A DNA stretch of 64,000 nucleotides from a virus. Under the pieces are notes generated by a model, which was not told the DNA's origin, searched no databases, and saw only the letters and a list, made by a program, of their open reading frames with translations. Within the stretch, counting starts at the first letter, position 1; the number at the start of each line of letters is the position of its first letter. The DNA is taken from positions 64,001-128,000 of IMG/VR virus record IMGVR_UViG_3300010316_000005. One strand, 5' to 3'. Shown piece by piece: positions 13,263-35,421 of the stretch. The position numbers and the translations under genes were made by a program.

Positions 13263-14345
13263 ATGTCAGATCACGCCCGTACAGTAACACCAAACAAAGC
13301 AAAAAATGCACTTCGTCACGCGATGCTCAAGAAGCGTCCAGTTTTCCTTTGGGGCCCTCCAGGTATCGGCAAGTCCGATGTAGTTCAGCAAATTGCTGAT
13401 GGCCTTGATGCAAAGATGATCGATGTTCGTTTGTCACTCTGGGAACCAACAGACATCAAAGGTATTCCATACTTCGACAGCAACATCGGTAAGATGGTAT
13501 GGGGTGAGCCAAGCGAACTTCCAGATCAGGCACTTGCTGATCAGTACGAAAACATTGTTCTTTTCCTAGACGAAATGAACTCAGCTGCTCCGAGCGTACA
13601 GGCTGCGGCATATCAGCTGATCCTTAACCGCAAGGTTGGTGAATACACGCTGCCAGATAACGTTATGATTGTTGCTGCTGGTAACCGTGAAGCTGACAAA
13701 GGTGTAACATATCGTATGCCGGCTCCGCTTGCTAACCGTTTTGTACACCTTGAAATGGCTGTTCACTTTGATGACTGGTTCCAGTGGGCAGTTGAAAACA
13801 AGGTACACCAAGACGTTGTTGGTTACTTGCAGTTTGCCAAGCAGGATATTTACACTTTTGATCCTAAGAGCCCGAGCCGCTCGTTTGCTACTCCGCGTTC
13901 GTGGACTTTCGTAAGCGAATTGCTCGAAGATGCACTGGACGCAGGTACTACAACTGACTTGGTTGCTGGTGCAATCGGCGAAGGTCTTGCTGTAAAGTTC
14001 ATGGCACACCGCAAAGTTGCTGCTAACATGCCAATGCCCGGCGATATCTTGGCAGGCAAGGTAAAAGAGCTCAAGACTAAAGAGGTTAGTGCTATGTACT
14101 CATTGACTATCTCTTTGTGCTACGAGCTGAAAGAGGCAAGCGACGCAGGCGACAAGAAGTTCGACTTTATGGTTAACAACTTCTTCCGCTTTGCAATGGA
14201 CAACTTCGAAACTGAGATGGTTGTTATGGGCATCAAGCTTGCGCTGACACAGTACGGGCTGCCAATTGATCCGGACGCAATCGACTGCTTTGATGAGTTC
14301 CACGACCGTTACGGTAAGTACATCAGCGCAGCACAAGGCGCTTAA
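13263..14345 (+). CDS. MoxR-like AAA+ ATPase
   Basis: Walker A GPPGIGKS, Walker B LFLDEMN, AAGNR, LANRF, TPRSW. Confidence 0.88.
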   Translation: MSDHARTVTPNKAKNALRHAMLKKRPVFLWGPPGIGKSDVVQQIADGLDAKMIDVRLSLWEPTDIKGIPYFDSNIGKMVWGEPSELPDQALADQYENIVLFLDEMNSAAPSVQAAAYQLILNRKVGEYTLPDNVMIVAAGNREADKGVTYRMPAPLANRFVHLEMAVHFDDWFQWAVENKVHQDVVGYLQFAKQDIYTFDPKSPSRSFATPRSWTFVSELLEDALDAGTTTDLVAGAIGEGLAVKFMAHRKVAANMPMPGDILAGKVKELKTKEVSAMYSLTISLCYELKEASDAGDKKFDFMVNNFFRFAMDNFETEMVVMGIKLALTQYGLPIDPDAIDCFDEFHDRYGKYISAAQGA

Positions 14346-14351
14346 TCATAT

Positions 14352-14388
14352 AGAGTGGGCAAGGTCAAACTTGCCCACTCTTCTTATT
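14352..14388 (+). terminator. Rho-independent terminator
   Basis: AGAGTGGGCAAG-gtcaaa-CTTGCCCACTCT 12-bp stem with T-rich tail. Confidence 0.8.
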
Positions 14389-14406
14389 CAACAGATGCTT
14401 TTTGAC

Positions 14407-14435
14407 TTGACACAGACTTCGATTGCTGTTATAGT
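14407..14435 (+). promoter_or_regulatory. sigma70-type promoter
   Basis: TTGACA-N17-TATAGT with TGn. Confidence 0.7.
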
Positions 14436-14468
14436 TATAGCATAAACAGAGAAACAAAGAGGTTTACT

Positions 14469-15779
14469 ATGTCAATCAAAGGCACTTCAAGCAAAACTAA
14501 AAAGAACTGGCAGGAAGATCCAAATCTTACGCCAGAAGAACTCAAGGTTATGGGCGCCGCAGTCCTTGATCGTATTATTACTGCTCGTATCGGCTTGCTC
14601 CTAAAGCACCCGTTCTTTGGTAACCTTGCTACTCGGTTGAAGATCCAGGCGTGTGACGGTTGGTGCCCGACTGCGGCAACAGATGGCCGCAGCTTGTATT
14701 ACAACACTCAGTTCTTCAATGCAATGTCAAACAAAGAGATCGAGTTTGTTATTGCACACGAAATCCTTCACTGCGTGTACGATCACTTGTCGCGTCGTGA
14801 TAGCCGTGATCCTCAGCTTTATAACATTGCCGCTGACTACATTGTTAACAACATCCTTGTTGACGAGCGCATTGGTATTAAGCCAAAGATTGTTGATTGT
14901 TTCCAAGACTTTAAGTACCGCGGTTGGGCTTCTGAAGAAGTATACGATGCACTTCACGAAGAAGCCCAAAAGAATGGCGGCGACAAGAGCTTCCTTGATA
15001 AGCTTGGCGAAATGCTCGACGAACACTATGACTGGAGCAAAGACCCGAACGACGATGAACAGAAAGACGGCGAAGGCAACCCACAAGGCGGTGGCGGACG
15101 TCCTCAATATTCTGAGGAAGAACTGCGTCAGATTGCCGACGAAGTTAAAGAAGCTATGATTAACGCGGCTCAAAGTGCTGGTGCAGGTAATGTTCCTGCA
15201 GGCGTAGCGCGGATGATCAAAGAATTGACTGAGCCTAAGATGAACTGGCGTGAATTGCTGCGTCAGCAAATCCAAAGCATGATTCGCAGCGACTTTACTT
15301 TCCAGCGTCCAAACCGTAAGAGCCAGATGTCCGGCGCTATTCTTCCAGGACAGGACTTCCAAGACACTATTGACATTTGTGTTAGCTTGGACATGTCGGG
15401 TTCGATTGGTAACGAACAAGCTCAAGATTTCCTTTCAGAGATCAAAGGCATTATGGACGAGTACCAGGACTATAAGATCACTGTATGGTGTTTTGACACT
15501 AAGGTCTACAACGAGCAAGAGTTCACTTCAGACGGTGGCGACGACTTGCTAGACTATGAGATCATGGGCGGTGGCGGCACCGACTTTGACGCTAACTGGG
15601 AATACATGAAAGAACAGGACATTGTGCCTAAGAAGTTCATCATGTTTACAGATGGTTATGCTTGGAACAACTGGGGTGATCCAGACTACTGTGATACAAT
15701 CTTCCTTATTCACGGTAACCACGATCGTTCACTTGAAGGTCCGTTTGGCATGACAGTCCACTACGAGGACGCGCAATGA
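14469..15779 (+). CDS. HEXXH metallopeptidase-like domain plus VWA domain (DUF2201-type), partner of the AAA+ ATPase
   Basis: TAATDG, AHEILH, acidic/Gly linker, MIDAS DMSGS, GGGGTDF, FTDGY. Confidence 0.85.
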   Translation: MSIKGTSSKTKKNWQEDPNLTPEELKVMGAAVLDRIITARIGLLLKHPFFGNLATRLKIQACDGWCPTAATDGRSLYYNTQFFNAMSNKEIEFVIAHEILHCVYDHLSRRDSRDPQLYNIAADYIVNNILVDERIGIKPKIVDCFQDFKYRGWASEEVYDALHEEAQKNGGDKSFLDKLGEMLDEHYDWSKDPNDDEQKDGEGNPQGGGGRPQYSEEELRQIADEVKEAMINAAQSAGAGNVPAGVARMIKELTEPKMNWRELLRQQIQSMIRSDFTFQRPNRKSQMSGAILPGQDFQDTIDICVSLDMSGSIGNEQAQDFLSEIKGIMDEYQDYKITVWCFDTKVYNEQEFTSDGGDDLLDYEIMGGGGTDFDANWEYMKEQDIVPKKFIMFTDGYAWNNWGDPDYCDTIFLIHGNHDRSLEGPFGMTVHYEDAQ

Positions 15780-31820: not shown

Positions 31821-32438
31821 TTATTGTTGTCTAGTATTTCCGTAGTGAATTACTTCGCATTTATCGTTGACGTAGTTTCTCCAAGGATCGATCACTACAC
31901 TGCCGTCGGGGATATTACAGTACAATGTATCAACATCACTTTGTCCAGTATACTTGTAGGTTGTGCTAGCACTATGAGCAAGCAAGAAGATTGCTGGCTT
32001 ATAAGGGCGATAATCGTCGCCCGTTAATGGATCTACGTAAATTGGCCTGTAACCAAGCTTTTCTACATAACTACCAATCAACAAACTATAACTCCCATCT
32101 AGATATTCAACACCTGGTTTGTACGCTTTGCCATGAATAACAATATCGCTCATGCGAGGATTTTGCTGTGCTGCAAAGACCAAACGGTCAGCAATGTTTT
32201 TTGCCTGAATCTCTCTTGCGTTCATTATAGCATCAAATAAATCGTAGCCTAGATCTAATTCACTTGCCATGTATCTTAATGCAATATTATCACGCGGATG
32301 ACAATTGTGAACAACTACTCCGGTATTACTTTGTAGAAAGAATTGATCATCTTTTACTAGATGGCTTGGTTCAACTTCTACATTATAAACAGGACCGTTG
32401 TAGTCGAAAGTTTCTATTTTTTTAATTTTTGTTTTCAT
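31821..32438 (-). CDS. ugd: UDP-glucose dehydrogenase C-terminal fragment preceded by split-intein C-part
   Basis: Residues 1-45 are IntC (VYNVEV...VVHN), followed by CHPRDNIAL (catalytic Cys motif), GKAYKP and VIDPWR. Confidence 0.9.
   Translation of the reverse strand: MKTKIKKIETFDYNGPVYNVEVEPSHLVKDDQFFLQSNTGVVVHNCHPRDNIALRYMASELDLGYDLFDAIMNAREIQAKNIADRLVFAAQQNPRMSDIVIHGKAYKPGVEYLDGSYSLLIGSYVEKLGYRPIYVDPLTGDDYRPYKPAIFLLAHSASTTYKYTGQSDVDTLYCNIPDGSVVIDPWRNYVNDKCEVIHYGNTRQQ
32304..32438 (-). mobile_element. Split intein C-part (IntC, 45 aa)
   Basis: MKTKIKKIE...YNGPVYNVEV...GVVVHN|C; blocks F and G present. Confidence 0.92.
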
Positions 32439-33244
32439 AATTTAATTCCTAGATTTTTTAAATCACTTTCTAACATTATTTTTAATTTTAAGTCTGGATG
32501 TTGTTCGTTAAGTAACTCAAATTTTCTTTTTTGTATTCTATACCAATGACTTGCTTTTGGATCAACGTATGACCCCCATGCGTACACATAGAAATCGGGA
32601 AAATAATGATGAGTTAGCCCGTCGTCACCTATATAAGGAATTTTACCTTTATGACATTCAAAGGATAAATTGTTATCGTCTAAATATTCTATAAACTTTA
32701 ATTCGTATCTTCCTTGTACTTTATATGTAGCACCGTTACTATGTTTATATTCGTGCCAGTGCGCTTGTCCAGAGGTATTAGCATTATCATAACATCCTCG
32801 CTCCCATGCATCAAGTGATCCTCGTTTAAACTTAGCACGAAATTCCGGGTCTTCCATAAGCTTAGATCTTGTAGCAGAAACCTTAGCTCTTATTTCCAGA
32901 CGTTTCATTCCATTCTTGTCTCCGGCATTTACACCTTTTAGTTTTTTAGATATCTTATCTTTTATTTCAGTGCCGCGAGAAGTGTATGCATTTCTTACCC
33001 CTTGCGATACTTTCTCTCTAATTTCCGGTCTTGCTGCTAATATAGGACGCCAACATTTGTTACAATAATCTTTATCAAAATATTCATTTTTTTTCATTTT
33101 ACAATAATGACCTTTTAATCTGTTGTGCAAGTTCCCGCAAGAATCACATAACAGTTCAATATATTGAAGATTAACTTCTCGATATCCTGTTTTATTTTGC
33201 TTAGATTTTTCTTTTTTTCTTATAATGTATTCATTTACAATCAT
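32435..33244 (-). mobile_element. Free-standing PD-(D/E)XK-type putative homing endonuclease between the split-intein halves
   Basis: CDSC and CNKC Zn ligands; basic NUMOD-like middle; C-terminal QGRYELKF...IPY...YFPDFYV...YVDPK; AT-rich; ATGA overlap with IntC. Confidence 0.8.
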
Positions 33245-33288: not shown

Positions 33289-35421
33289 TCAGTCATCCAA
33301 TACATACAATTTGTCAGTTTTTAATACATTGTCTGCTCTTACTACAATTCTCAAATTATTGCGCCAAACTGGAATTAAGTGGTCAGCAGTTGTTATTAAC
33401 TCTGCGTCATCTATTATAAACTTATACATTTTTCCTGTATAATGCCTAGACGTTACTTGATCTATTTTTTTATAATCAATTTTAGAACAAGCATAGTTGG
33501 CTGATTTAATAATTCGAGTTTGATCAGTATCATTTATATAACAATCATACAACTCGGCAATACAAATTTCTTTATCGTCTACATTCACAAGAAAATCACC
33601 TAACACACAGCCGCCTCCGTCGCCCATGCCTGCCTTCATGTACTGTGGGCCCATAATTCGCATCGTAGACTGCGCTAGAGCGTCTGTAACAACGTCTACG
33701 TTAATGTTGCCCTGTTGCTCTGCTACGTCCTGCACCATGTTTACAAGACCGATTTTGGCACTGATGAATGTGTTTCCTTGCCACGTACATTTGCCGTTTC
33801 TCCGTGTAAGAAAAATATGATTCTTTGGAAGCATAGCACAGTATACTTTTCCGGTATAATCAACTGAATTAAATTTGAGGCCGACACTAGAAGAACTTTG
33901 ATATAATGATGTTTTATTAACTAACTCGTATATTAAATGACAATCTTTATTTGATAATTCAGTCCTTGTAGTTCTATATGACGGGGATCTGCCAACTTTA
34001 ATAATTAGTTCACCGAGATCTGCTGCCATTTGATCTGAACTAGAAGCATAATATTTATAACGTTGGTCGTCTGGTGATTTTGTACCATTAAAATGTGTAG
34101 TATGTAGAGCAGCGCCATCAGCAAGGTTATATGTATCTAGAAATAAACGAATCATGTCTTTTCCTAAATCTTTAATAATGCCAGGAATAAATTTATCAAA
34201 CGATTTTCCAAATTGGCTCAAGTATGTTGACAATTCGGGCCATAACACTGATATGCCTGTTCTTCCTGTTAATAGTCGGTATCTATCTTTTTCAGGATGA
34301 TTATTATATATATTAGAGAACACTTCATTAATCATTTCGTATTTGTCGGGATTCACATCCGAGCATTGCGAAATAATAATTCTTCCTGATTGATTACAAA
34401 TACATCCTTCTGATAAAAACCAAGCCATAAATTGTACATAATCTTCAGTTGCAAATGTCATTTCATTTACTGTAACCGTCTTTGGTGAATTGTTGTGCCA
34501 TTCAGTTGATCGTTGAAACACAAATCCTTTGCGCTTGATCACATCATGCGCTGGTTCTAACTTCCAATTATATCCATAATTTTTTCCAGGCAATTTGTTT
34601 TTTGTTGACATGCTACCAACAAACATATTATGCCCAGAAGTAACTAATACATCATCTTTGCTACTGTGAAAATGTATCATACTTCCATTGTAATCTCTTG
34701 AAACCCATTTATCAGGTGTTAACCATTCAGGGAGCATAGTAGCAGGATCCAATGACAATACTTGATCGGTATCGATTGCGTCTTTAAATAATTTCCACCC
34801 AGTTGAGGTTAACACCTCGGTATCATCTGAGTAGCAATTATAAAAAACCTTGATACATTCGCACTCGTCCCATGTTCCTACTACATAGCGCGGTTCATTT
34901 TCCATAATAGTTTTGTAAAAATCCACAAGCTGTTTTGCGTCGCCGGTTTCTGATCCGTCATTAGTTCCAATCATTATCATTTCTGGATTGACCATGTCCC
35001 AAGCCACACTTCCCATTGCAATTAGGTACGGATTATACACGAAACGGGTATTAGTTACTAGTGGTTCTAGTTCTCGTCTAACTGTGCCCGGCAGCACTGT
35101 TGAAATAAGGACCAGCAACTGATTTTCATTCATATGCTCGTTGGCTTGCGTCAGCACTTGCTTCACAATATCGTAGTCAAAGTCTTTTGGCGGTAAGTGA
35201 GCAGTAGGCTCTCTTCCGTCATATGACGGATCATGCGGCGTTGGTACTGCAACAAATACAATGTCTCTGCCTGCTATTGCACCTTTAACTGTTGGAAACA
35301 TAGTAACCAACTGGCTCTTGCGACGTTCTGTATCATATCCCGATACTTCATGTCCTTTTTGCGCCATTACTTCGGCACAAGGCATTCCAAGTTTTCCGAC
35401 GCCTATAAATCCTATTCTCAT
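33289..35421 (-). CDS. ugd: UDP-glucose dehydrogenase N-terminal fragment with cis intein and split-intein N-part
   Basis: GVGKLG Rossmann motif, FVAVPTP, ISTVLPGT, YNP; KVFYN|intein|TFISAKI; GMGDGGG|IntN. Confidence 0.92.
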   Translation of the reverse strand: MRIGFIGVGKLGMPCAEVMAQKGHEVSGYDTERRKSQLVTMFPTVKGAIAGRDIVFVAVPTPHDPSYDGREPTAHLPPKDFDYDIVKQVLTQANEHMNENQLLVLISTVLPGTVRRELEPLVTNTRFVYNPYLIAMGSVAWDMVNPEMIMIGTNDGSETGDAKQLVDFYKTIMENEPRYVVGTWDECECIKVFYNCYSDDTEVLTSTGWKLFKDAIDTDQVLSLDPATMLPEWLTPDKWVSRDYNGSMIHFHSSKDDVLVTSGHNMFVGSMSTKNKLPGKNYGYNWKLEPAHDVIKRKGFVFQRSTEWHNNSPKTVTVNEMTFATEDYVQFMAWFLSEGCICNQSGRIIISQCSDVNPDKYEMINEVFSNIYNNHPEKDRYRLLTGRTGISVLWPELSTYLSQFGKSFDKFIPGIIKDLGKDMIRLFLDTYNLADGAALHTTHFNGTKSPDDQRYKYYASSSDQMAADLGELIIKVGRSPSYRTTRTELSNKDCHLIYELVNKTSLYQSSSSVGLKFNSVDYTGKVYCAMLPKNHIFLTRRNGKCTWQGNTFISAKIGLVNMVQDVAEQQGNINVDVVTDALAQSTMRIMGPQYMKAGMGDGGGCVLGDFLVNVDDKEICIAELYDCYINDTDQTRIIKSANYACSKIDYKKIDQVTSRHYTGKMYKFIIDDAELITTADHLIPVWRNNLRIVVRADNVLKTDKLYVLDD
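33292..33609 (-). mobile_element. Split intein N-part (IntN, 106 aa)
   Basis: CVLGDFLV (block A), LITTADHLIPV (block B, TxxH), ends RADNVLKTDKLYVLDD*. Confidence 0.9.
33772..34836 (-). mobile_element. Cis intein with LAGLIDADG endonuclease (355 aa)
   Basis: CYSDDTEVLTSTGWK, VTSGHNM, FMAWFLSEG, FLDTYNLADG, SSSDQMAADL, VYCAML...RRNGKCTWQGN|T. Confidence 0.93.

Follow-up and report, generated by a model that had tools for sequence, protein, structure and literature searches.

How can a virus obtain a working sugar dehydrogenase from a gene that is interrupted twice, each time at a catalytic motif? This question is raised by a locus of IMG/VR virus record IMGVR_UViG_3300010316_000005, of which a stretch of 64,000 nucleotides (positions 64,001 to 128,000 of the record; hereafter, the window) was analysed. 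On the minus strand of the window, an open reading frame (ORF) of 710 amino acids (aa) from the UDP-glucose/GDP-mannose dehydrogenase (UGDH/GMD) family carries a 355-aa insert at 33772-34836, and a split intein interrupts the same enzyme further downstream. With high confidence, we read the insert as a bifunctional intein of class 1 type, located after the active-site Asn of the phage dehydrogenase and mobile separately from the split cassette, the active enzyme very probably requiring both cis- and trans-splicing.

Empty alleles and the insertion site

A scan of IMG/VR with the N-extein returned at least 596 related stretches, and the best 80 loci were examined by placing pieces of the window protein with tblastn. 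The N-, middle and C-exteins are contiguous and in frame, with zero bases between them, in 75 of these 80 loci; the rest consist of four that stop at a contig end and one (L029) that possesses the split intein and its nuclease without the cis insert. The N-extein is 73-82% identical to the intein-less IMG/VR alleles, and the middle extein is 80-94% identical to a contiguous stretch of them. Furthermore, the joined peptide ECECIKVFYN/TFISAKIGLV (the slash marks the junction) is identical in the 12 empty alleles nearest the window at the cis site, and variation in this 60-base site across all 80 loci is almost confined to third codon positions.

The Asn of the K-x3-N motif is an active-site residue in the UGDH/GMD family. 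When an empty allele was aligned with solved GDP-mannose and UDP-glucose dehydrogenases, the cis insert was found directly after this Asn and the split intein directly before the catalytic cysteine of GG-x-C, and the start of the C-extein has its counterpart in GG-x-C-x-x-[KR]-D when compared with UGDH and GMD chains of solved structure. The catalytic Cys of this dehydrogenase family is essential (PMC6367545). The sequence-only reading of the locus had put the insert between KVFYN and TFISAKI, within the K-x3-N active-site helix, and the alignments bear this out as an exact, in-frame insertion of 355 aa, gap-free in 75 of the 80 relatives.

Membership of the host enzyme in the family is supported by matches to PF03721 and PF00984 above their cut-offs and by the alignment of K191, N195, the Cys at +1 and the Asp of CHPRD. 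The intein-less relative L018 also matches both Pfam domains, but it scores 154 bits against the NCBIfam TIGR03026 cut-off of 189.8 and has no match to PF03720, the C-terminal UDP-binding domain; "UGDH" is therefore used here as a family label and not as a statement of substrate. The N-extein is matched by 6 of 50,697 phage records, including Synechococcus phage Bellamy and Pelagibacter phage HTVC008M, while a megablast of the locus against the same 50,697 records gave no match. The gene sits in an accessory, glycosylation-type island of sugar tailoring, and the analysis lends no support to the earlier suggestion that ugd is probably essential. Of the 120 longer relatives (P0042-P0158), 111 lack an intein and owe their length to a C-terminal fusion that adds about 380 residues or more, in some cases with methyltransferase (PF05175, PF03602) or radical-SAM (PF04055) domains. 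The dehydrogenase is often fused to tailoring enzymes.

Intein family, predicted fold and organization of the precursor

A search of a large protein collection with the insert gave 34 matches, with E values as low as 2e-138 and in most cases over exactly residues 1-355. Their hosts are unrelated and comprise primase, ATP-dependent ligase, N6 and N4 DNA methylases, 5'-3' exonuclease, DnaB and dCMP deaminase, among others; many of these homologs are annotated with PF14528 or PF14890. In cultured phages, the family is found in mycobacteriophage DNA methylases, the thymidylate synthase of corynephage P1201, a portal protein and Lak megaphages. Full-length, complete copies begin with Cys and then T-E-V-L-T, and end in Gly-Asn followed by Cys, Ser or Thr, with one exception (Cys-Asn). 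Twelve positions (C1, T6, V8, T10, H69, G144, K215, D240, S267, R345, G354 and N355) are invariant in an alignment of 24 family sequences, and T66 and E143 are conserved at 90% or more. The conserved set comprises the splicing nucleophile, residues of blocks A and B, the acid/Gly pairs of both LAGLIDADG motifs and the terminal Asn. Judged by the many matches over residues 1-355 and the exact empty junctions, the insert is far beyond what chance would be expected to produce.

An AlphaFold2 model of the insert built on the 24-sequence alignment reached a predicted local distance difference test (pLDDT) of 89.2 and a predicted template-modelling score of 0.89. Its best Foldseek matches in the PDB are TliVMA, PI-SceI, PhoVMA and PI-PfuI (E 3e-17 to 6e-10, probability 1.00), accompanied by local matches to I-DmoI, I-SceI, I-Tsp061I and mini-inteins. 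The Hint fold, on which the sequence-only reading had made its assignment depend, was therefore recovered by structure prediction. Like the model, these solved proteins have a LAGLIDADG domain set into a Hint domain, with a sequence identity of 9-13%; unlike the window intein, PI-SceI, TliVMA, PhoVMA and PI-PfuI have canonical His-Asn ends and additional DNA-recognition regions.

Most of the features expected of class 1 inteins are present. The N-terminal nucleophile Cys1 (Cys196 of the precursor) is invariant in the 24 family members and in 10 UGDH alleles; block B contains Thr66-x-x-His69; the C-terminal Asn355 is followed by Thr, one of the three +1 residues (Cys, Ser, Thr) used by the homologs; the predicted model has the Hint fold; and the in-frame insert is absent from the conserved site of orthologous alleles. 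Block F contributes Cys333 (VYC) and His340, and the insert ends in Gly354-Asn355. Two LAGLIDADG motifs are recognizable, both ending in an acidic residue (..FLSE143-G and ..NLAD240-G). Family homology, conserved motifs and predicted fold together point to a real cis intein whose Hint domain is interrupted by a LAGLIDADG endonuclease domain, as the sequence-only reading had proposed.

The locus consists of three successive minus-strand ORFs (33289-35421, 710 aa; 32435-33244, 269 aa; 31821-32438, 205 aa), whose predicted parts are listed in Table 1. The middle extein represents the start of the central domain and stops just ahead of the catalytic Cys, and the ATG of the split-intein C-fragment (IntC) overlaps the stop codon of the endonuclease gene. 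Translation of the ORF upholds the earlier coordinates, the length of 355 aa at residues 196-550, the spacing of 54 residues and the mature size of about 409 aa, which equals the sum of the exteins (195+54+160 = 409 aa); the range 33610-34836 given at that time covers the cis intein plus the 54-aa middle extein (551-604, 33610-33771). An intron or a separate gene was also considered for the insert and is ruled out: the frame is open over both junctions, and the plus-strand ORFs of the region are just 50-64 aa long.

Table 1. Predicted parts of the interrupted dehydrogenase locus (window positions)
Feature	Position	Strand	Details
N-extein, residues 1-195	34837..35421	-	NAD-binding domain; ends ...CIKVFYN, K191-x3-N195 motif; PF03721 65.7 bits, cut-off 27
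Cis-splicing intein, 355 aa, precursor residues 196-550	33772..34836	-	CYSDDTEVLT to ...KCTWQGN; +1 = Thr551
LAGLIDADG homing-endonuclease domain inside the cis intein	33907..34464	-	About intein residues 125-310
LAGLIDADG motif 1 (..FLSEG)	34405-34431	-	Ends Glu143-Gly144
LAGLIDADG motif 2 (..NLADG)	34114-34149	-	Ends Asp240-Gly241
Middle extein, residues 551-604 (54 aa)	33610..33771	-	TFISAKIGLV... to GMGDGGG; PF00984 match at 550-609
Split-intein N-fragment (IntN), residues 605-710	33292..33609	-	TIGR01445 intein_Nterm 30.9 bits, cut-off 24.5
Stop codon of the 710-aa ORF	33289-33291	-	
Free-standing endonuclease gene, 269 aa, between the intein halves	32435..33244	-	PD-(D/E)XK, T7 endonuclease I-like C-terminal domain; PF05367
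Split-intein C-fragment (IntC), 45 aa	32304..32438	-	Ends ..VVVHN; TIGR01443 intein_Cterm 15.9 bits, cut-off 15.6
C-extein, 160 aa + stop	31821..32303	-	Begins with catalytic Cys, CHPRDN...

The second interruption has the organization of a fractured gene: IntN, a nuclease ORF, IntC and colinear exteins are all present, and the same layout recurs in L029 and L097-L106. IntN is absent from intein-less alleles. The predicted complex of residues 600-710 of the 710-aa ORF with residues 1-50 of the 205-aa ORF gave an ipSAE of 0.77 (best control, 0.00), a mark that 51 of 78 solved complexes attained, as did 2 of 108 mismatched pairs; because split-intein complexes have already been solved, this pass may reflect likeness only. 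Three runs shared at least 90% of contacts, with a partner pLDDT of at least 72.

The nuclease encoded between the halves passes the Pfam family Phage_endo_I (PF05367) narrowly, with 29.6 bits against 29.1, and matches PHROG endonuclease families. Foldseek matches of its AlphaFold2 model (pLDDT 89) to TnsA and T7 endonuclease I are weak (E 0.025-0.06), agreeing with the Pfam match without being decisive alone; all PDB matches of the model are PD-(D/E)XK nucleases (TnsA, T7 endonuclease I, Bax1). Database relatives number 61, at 30-88% identity. Invariant residues include Cys33, E181, D189, H198, P216-D217-F218 and K230, and Cys36, Cys61, Cys64 and D228 are conserved at 90% or more. In all 10 contigs that were inspected, the relative lies between a 355-aa N-part and a 202-206-aa C-part of the same dehydrogenase, and this nuclease family seems to be dedicated to one target gene. 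Thus, the earlier proposal of a single enzyme of about 409 aa that hosts two inteins and two endonucleases of different folds, LAGLIDADG and PD-(D/E)XK, agrees with the homologies and predicted structures.

Two further observations concern the genome in which this locus is embedded. Neighbouring ORFs at 13263-15779 (+) of the window match the ATPase family phrog_1297 (334 bits) and phrog_1314 (400 bits), the latter carrying the label HNH endonuclease; they resemble the CobS/CobT-like pair common in marine myoviruses. The virus record is 175,736 bp long, with a CheckV completeness estimate of 49%.

Distribution of the two elements and competing explanations

A survey of alleles with zero, one or two inteins, as the sequence-only reading had called for, found most alleles empty, at least 12 distinct alleles with the cis intein only, many with the split intein only, and two with both. 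The cis intein alone is present in IMG/VR contigs L085, L086 and L087/L088, in the full-length proteins P0039, P0040, P0041, P0057, P0068, P0074, P0075 and P0080, and in the fragments P0005, P0006 and P0007, of which P0007 reads GMGDAGACHPRDN uninterrupted through the second (Cys) site. The split intein and nuclease alone are found in L029 and L097-L106. Both elements occur together just in the window and in a 940-bp metagenome contig, L090 (P0008). Ten UGDH alleles with the cis intein are mutually 52-77% identical, except for one pair at 95%. Their junctions, [IV]FYN/CYS...GKCTWQGN/TFISxK, are identical, all splicing and nuclease residues are kept, and no endonuclease-less (mini-intein) form was seen among them, the inserts all measuring 348-357 aa.

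The Cys site has hosted another element as well. Residues 250-625 of P0062, a related phage dehydrogenase (Logan assemblies, longest contig 18,133 nt), form a contiguous 376-aa LAGLIDADG intein (GMGDAGA/CLPTGE...SVSN/CHPRDN) that occupies the exact site of the window's split intein. Because the two are unrelated in sequence, the Cys site has been invaded at least twice. The earlier idea of a homing hotspot is consequently sustained in one respect, since three different elements are found at two catalytic sites of this gene family, but not in another, as the great majority of alleles are empty.

Several comparisons bear on the movement of the two elements. At the divergence observed, synonymous sites are saturated. 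The composition of the cis intein is foreign relative to the exteins: at third codon positions, the cis intein has a GC content of 0.26, and IntN, the nuclease and IntC have values of 0.20-0.23, against 0.37, 0.59 and 0.34 in the three extein pieces. On a quick maximum-likelihood extein tree of 86 rows with some long branches, the presence of the cis intein needs at least three gains or losses, a count to be read as a minimum estimate and not as a history. L086 is nested there among four empty alleles, with a Shimodaira-Hasegawa-like approximate likelihood-ratio support of 99. Similarities in intein and extein are incongruent: identities in the intein and the N-extein are 75% and 66% for L085, and 66% and 75% for L086.

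Window positions 33289-34150 were also compared with L090:1-940. The DNA of the cis inteins is about 68% identical (58-82%), that of the middle exteins about 87% (84-89%) and that of the IntN fragments 96-100%. The split cassettes of the window and L090 are almost the same copy, and their cis inteins belong to old, distinct lineages. This mosaic argues that the two elements are mobile separately, and it suggests that the split cassette has recently passed, along with a short co-converted stretch, from one phage to another when both carried old, differing cis inteins. On sequence grounds, the locus looks like a gene with two independent selfish elements, the double state being a coincidence of invasions and not a co-adapted device.

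Some points weigh against reading the insert as a splicing, mobile intein. By itself, it has no Pfam Hint or LAGLIDADG match and no PDB sequence match (phmmer), the sole Pfam/NCBIfam signal being weak and confined to the part of PRK07773 DnaB that represents its intein; the assignment draws on homologs and a predicted structure, and excision and endonuclease activity of the window copy are predictions. Two features of class 1 are missing, as the block-F Asp (F:4) is replaced by Cys333 and the penultimate His by Gly354. The cis intein is also rare: the gene is present in at least 596 IMG/VR stretches, and about 5 contigs have the intein. Finally, in the ENA allele with the cis intein (P0005; L091:3215-3300), the reading frame shifts within the middle extein, past ...NINVDVVT, and the remainder of the enzyme continues in another frame; this may be an assembly error or a decaying intein-bearing pseudogene, and some carriers may be decaying. 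Given its rarity, ongoing homing of the cis intein is treated as a possibility.

The unusual residues have precedents within the family. Class 1 mycobacteriophage inteins often lack the penultimate His and have Gly, Lys or Ser instead (PMC5050341, Kelley et al. 2016), and in the Bethlehem gp51 intein, whose penultimate residue is Gly, splicing goes to completion and is slowed by a Gly-to-His change (PMC5050341). This intein is a distant homolog of the window intein (BLASTP 8e-7, 23% identity over 271 residues), and the alignment includes the block-F Cys (VWC) and runs through the terminal GN; across the intein family, the block-F column is Cys or Asp. The Gly-Asn end, the block-F Cys and the Thr at +1 had been singled out as peculiarities. 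All three are present as claimed (Gly354-Asn355, Cys333, Thr551), but they are family traits, Gly354 being invariant in the 24 members and gp51 providing the precedent. Since a homolog with these traits splices, neither the Gly-Asn end nor the block-F Cys is a reason to regard the intein as novel or its splicing as impaired. A class 3 (WCT) assignment was also considered and is ruled out: Cys1 is present, B:12 is Met71 and G:5 is Gln353, and only the Cys at F:4 fits.

A third intein of this genome, with class 3 features, was observed in the same virus record, outside the window (G000:C1:148301-149365 (+); L082:1111-2175). It is about 355 aa long and lies directly after the Walker A GTGKS of a gp46/Rad50-like ATPase ORF; it has a LAGLIDADG domain (PF14528, 57 bits), and apparently begins with Gln. 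Its block B contains Trp (DHLW), its block F contains Cys (ECQCIQ), and T-H-N precedes the Thr at +1.

It is conceivable, though unlikely, that the cis intein still splices but that its LAGLIDADG domain has lost homing-nuclease activity, the element being a vertically inherited passenger in slow loss. Its rarity among alleles would fit, as would the divergence of the inteins of UGDH alleles, which is as great among them (52-77%) as that of the exteins and is compatible with long residence; near-identical intein copies in diverged exteins were not seen among these alleles. Nevertheless, E143, G144, K215 and D240 are invariant in 10 of 10 alleles and the inserts retain their full length, and a passenger would not be expected to show the intein-extein incongruence of L085 and L086 or a polyphyletic distribution on the extein tree.

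The sequence-only reading had suggested that the two splicing events could gate the dehydrogenase. We regard as quite improbable such a coupling, whether by an obligate order or by a conditional (e.g., redox) switch that acts during infection. K-x3-N and the nucleophilic Cys are each disrupted by one of the inserts, which lie only 54 residues apart, Cys1 and the block-F Cys could in principle form a disulfide, and disulfide-bonded precursor conformers were described in a mutant of the related gp51 intein (PMC5050341); each element, however, is found alone in many alleles, so neither needs the other, and the double state is rare (2 cases) and mosaic, as expected of two independent selfish invasions. 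The fuller form of this idea is a natural two-key switch, in which enzyme activity and the sugar-modification pathway would appear only after both splicings, and the Cys1/Cys333 pair would make one key sensitive to redox or other conditions, thereby timing maturation; we consider it slightly more doubtful still. Finally, a degenerate, non-splicing domain that is retained or turns the gene into a pseudogene is hardly credible: the missing direct Pfam match, the non-canonical block-F and penultimate residues and the L091 frameshift would suit it, but the alleles do not vary at C1, T66, H69, N355 and T+1, no stop codon interrupts the 710 codons of the ORF, conserved and otherwise intact exteins would be incompatible with a 355-aa domain lodged within the catalytic helix, and gp51, a homolog with the same non-canonical residues, splices (PMC5050341).

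Proposed maturation, precedents and significance

If the insert is a splicing cis intein next to a split intein, as we favour, maturation of the dehydrogenase would proceed as follows. After translation, Cys196 would make an N-S acyl shift; Thr551, the native +1 nucleophile, would attack the Cys196 thioester; and Asn550 would cyclise without a penultimate His, as in related phage inteins. Cis-splicing would restore the KVFYN-TFISAK helix. IntN would pair with the 45-aa IntC of the downstream ORF, joining GMGDGGG (Gly604) to the catalytic Cys, and the active 409-aa enzyme would result from one cis- and one trans-splicing event. The two events are most likely independent, without a fixed order, and since a catalytic motif is disrupted by each insert, a partly processed form would be inactive. 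The cis intein itself would be a selfish DNA element that spreads (or spread) through LAGLIDADG cutting of the junction ECECIKVFYN/TFISAKIGLV in empty alleles.

Phage inteins are mostly catalogued in genes of DNA metabolism and packaging. The inteins of mycobacteriophage DNA methyltransferases (Bobi gp73, Dorothy gp75, ShiLan gp65) and of the P1201 thymidylate synthase are matched by tblastn over residues 1-355 at about 24-25% identity (E 1e-10 to 2e-14) and have the same family architecture; their hosts belong to DNA metabolism, in contrast to the carbohydrate-pathway enzyme described here. The intein of Bethlehem gp51, a recombination directionality factor/metallophosphoesterase, is likewise of class 1 and has Cys1, a LAGLIDADG domain, VWC and Gly-Asn (PMC5050341). 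The window intein is only 23% identical to it and comes from another phage group; its host protein, a sugar-nucleotide dehydrogenase from a marine phage, is occupied by a split intein as well.

Liu and Yang reportedly described, in 2003, a split dnaE of Trichodesmium erythraeum with additional contiguous inteins, whose product matures by cis- and trans-splicing. That system differs from the window locus in being a cellular replication enzyme whose gene halves are non-adjacent and have no endonuclease gene between them. Fractured genes have the same layout as the second interruption of the window, IntN-nuclease ORF-IntC (Dassa et al. 2009, PMC2677866). The hosts listed in that article are gp41 helicase, IMPDH, DnaE, NrdA, NrdJ, DNA ligase and terminase, with no sugar dehydrogenase among them, and term searches of its text gave no instance of a fractured gene that also has a contiguous intein (PMC2677866).

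Inteins are also known in relatives of the host enzyme. The "udp" allele occurs in archaeal and bacterial genes of the UDP-glucose dehydrogenase family, including those of M. jannaschii, Halobacteria and Dictyoglomus (Soucy et al. 2014, PMC4071816). Its host belongs to the same enzyme superfamily as that of the window intein. Its insertion site may be the catalytic Cys and not the position that follows K-x3-N. The site after the Asn of K-x3-N, in a carbohydrate-metabolism enzyme, is apparently undescribed.

Active-site phage inteins, LAGLIDADG inteins with Gly-Asn ends and fractured genes were all known already (PMC5050341, PMC2677866). Each element of the locus is of a known kind, and the combination of a cis and a split intein in one enzyme is rare. 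What is new is the sugar dehydrogenase of a marine phage as host, the fractured-gene cassette only 54 codons away, and the mosaic evidence of separate movement.

For genome annotation, the consequence is that gene callers will list three products, namely a "dehydrogenase" of 710 aa, a nuclease and an orphan of 205 aa, in place of one 409-aa enzyme. The two elements may also serve as tools, being a presumably orthogonal pair of inteins, one with a Thr+1/Gly-Asn end and the other with Cys+1 and naturally split. The phage enzyme probably needs two different protein-splicing events to mature, and, as one small enzyme with neighbouring cis and split inteins, it would offer a compact system for testing their mutual interference.

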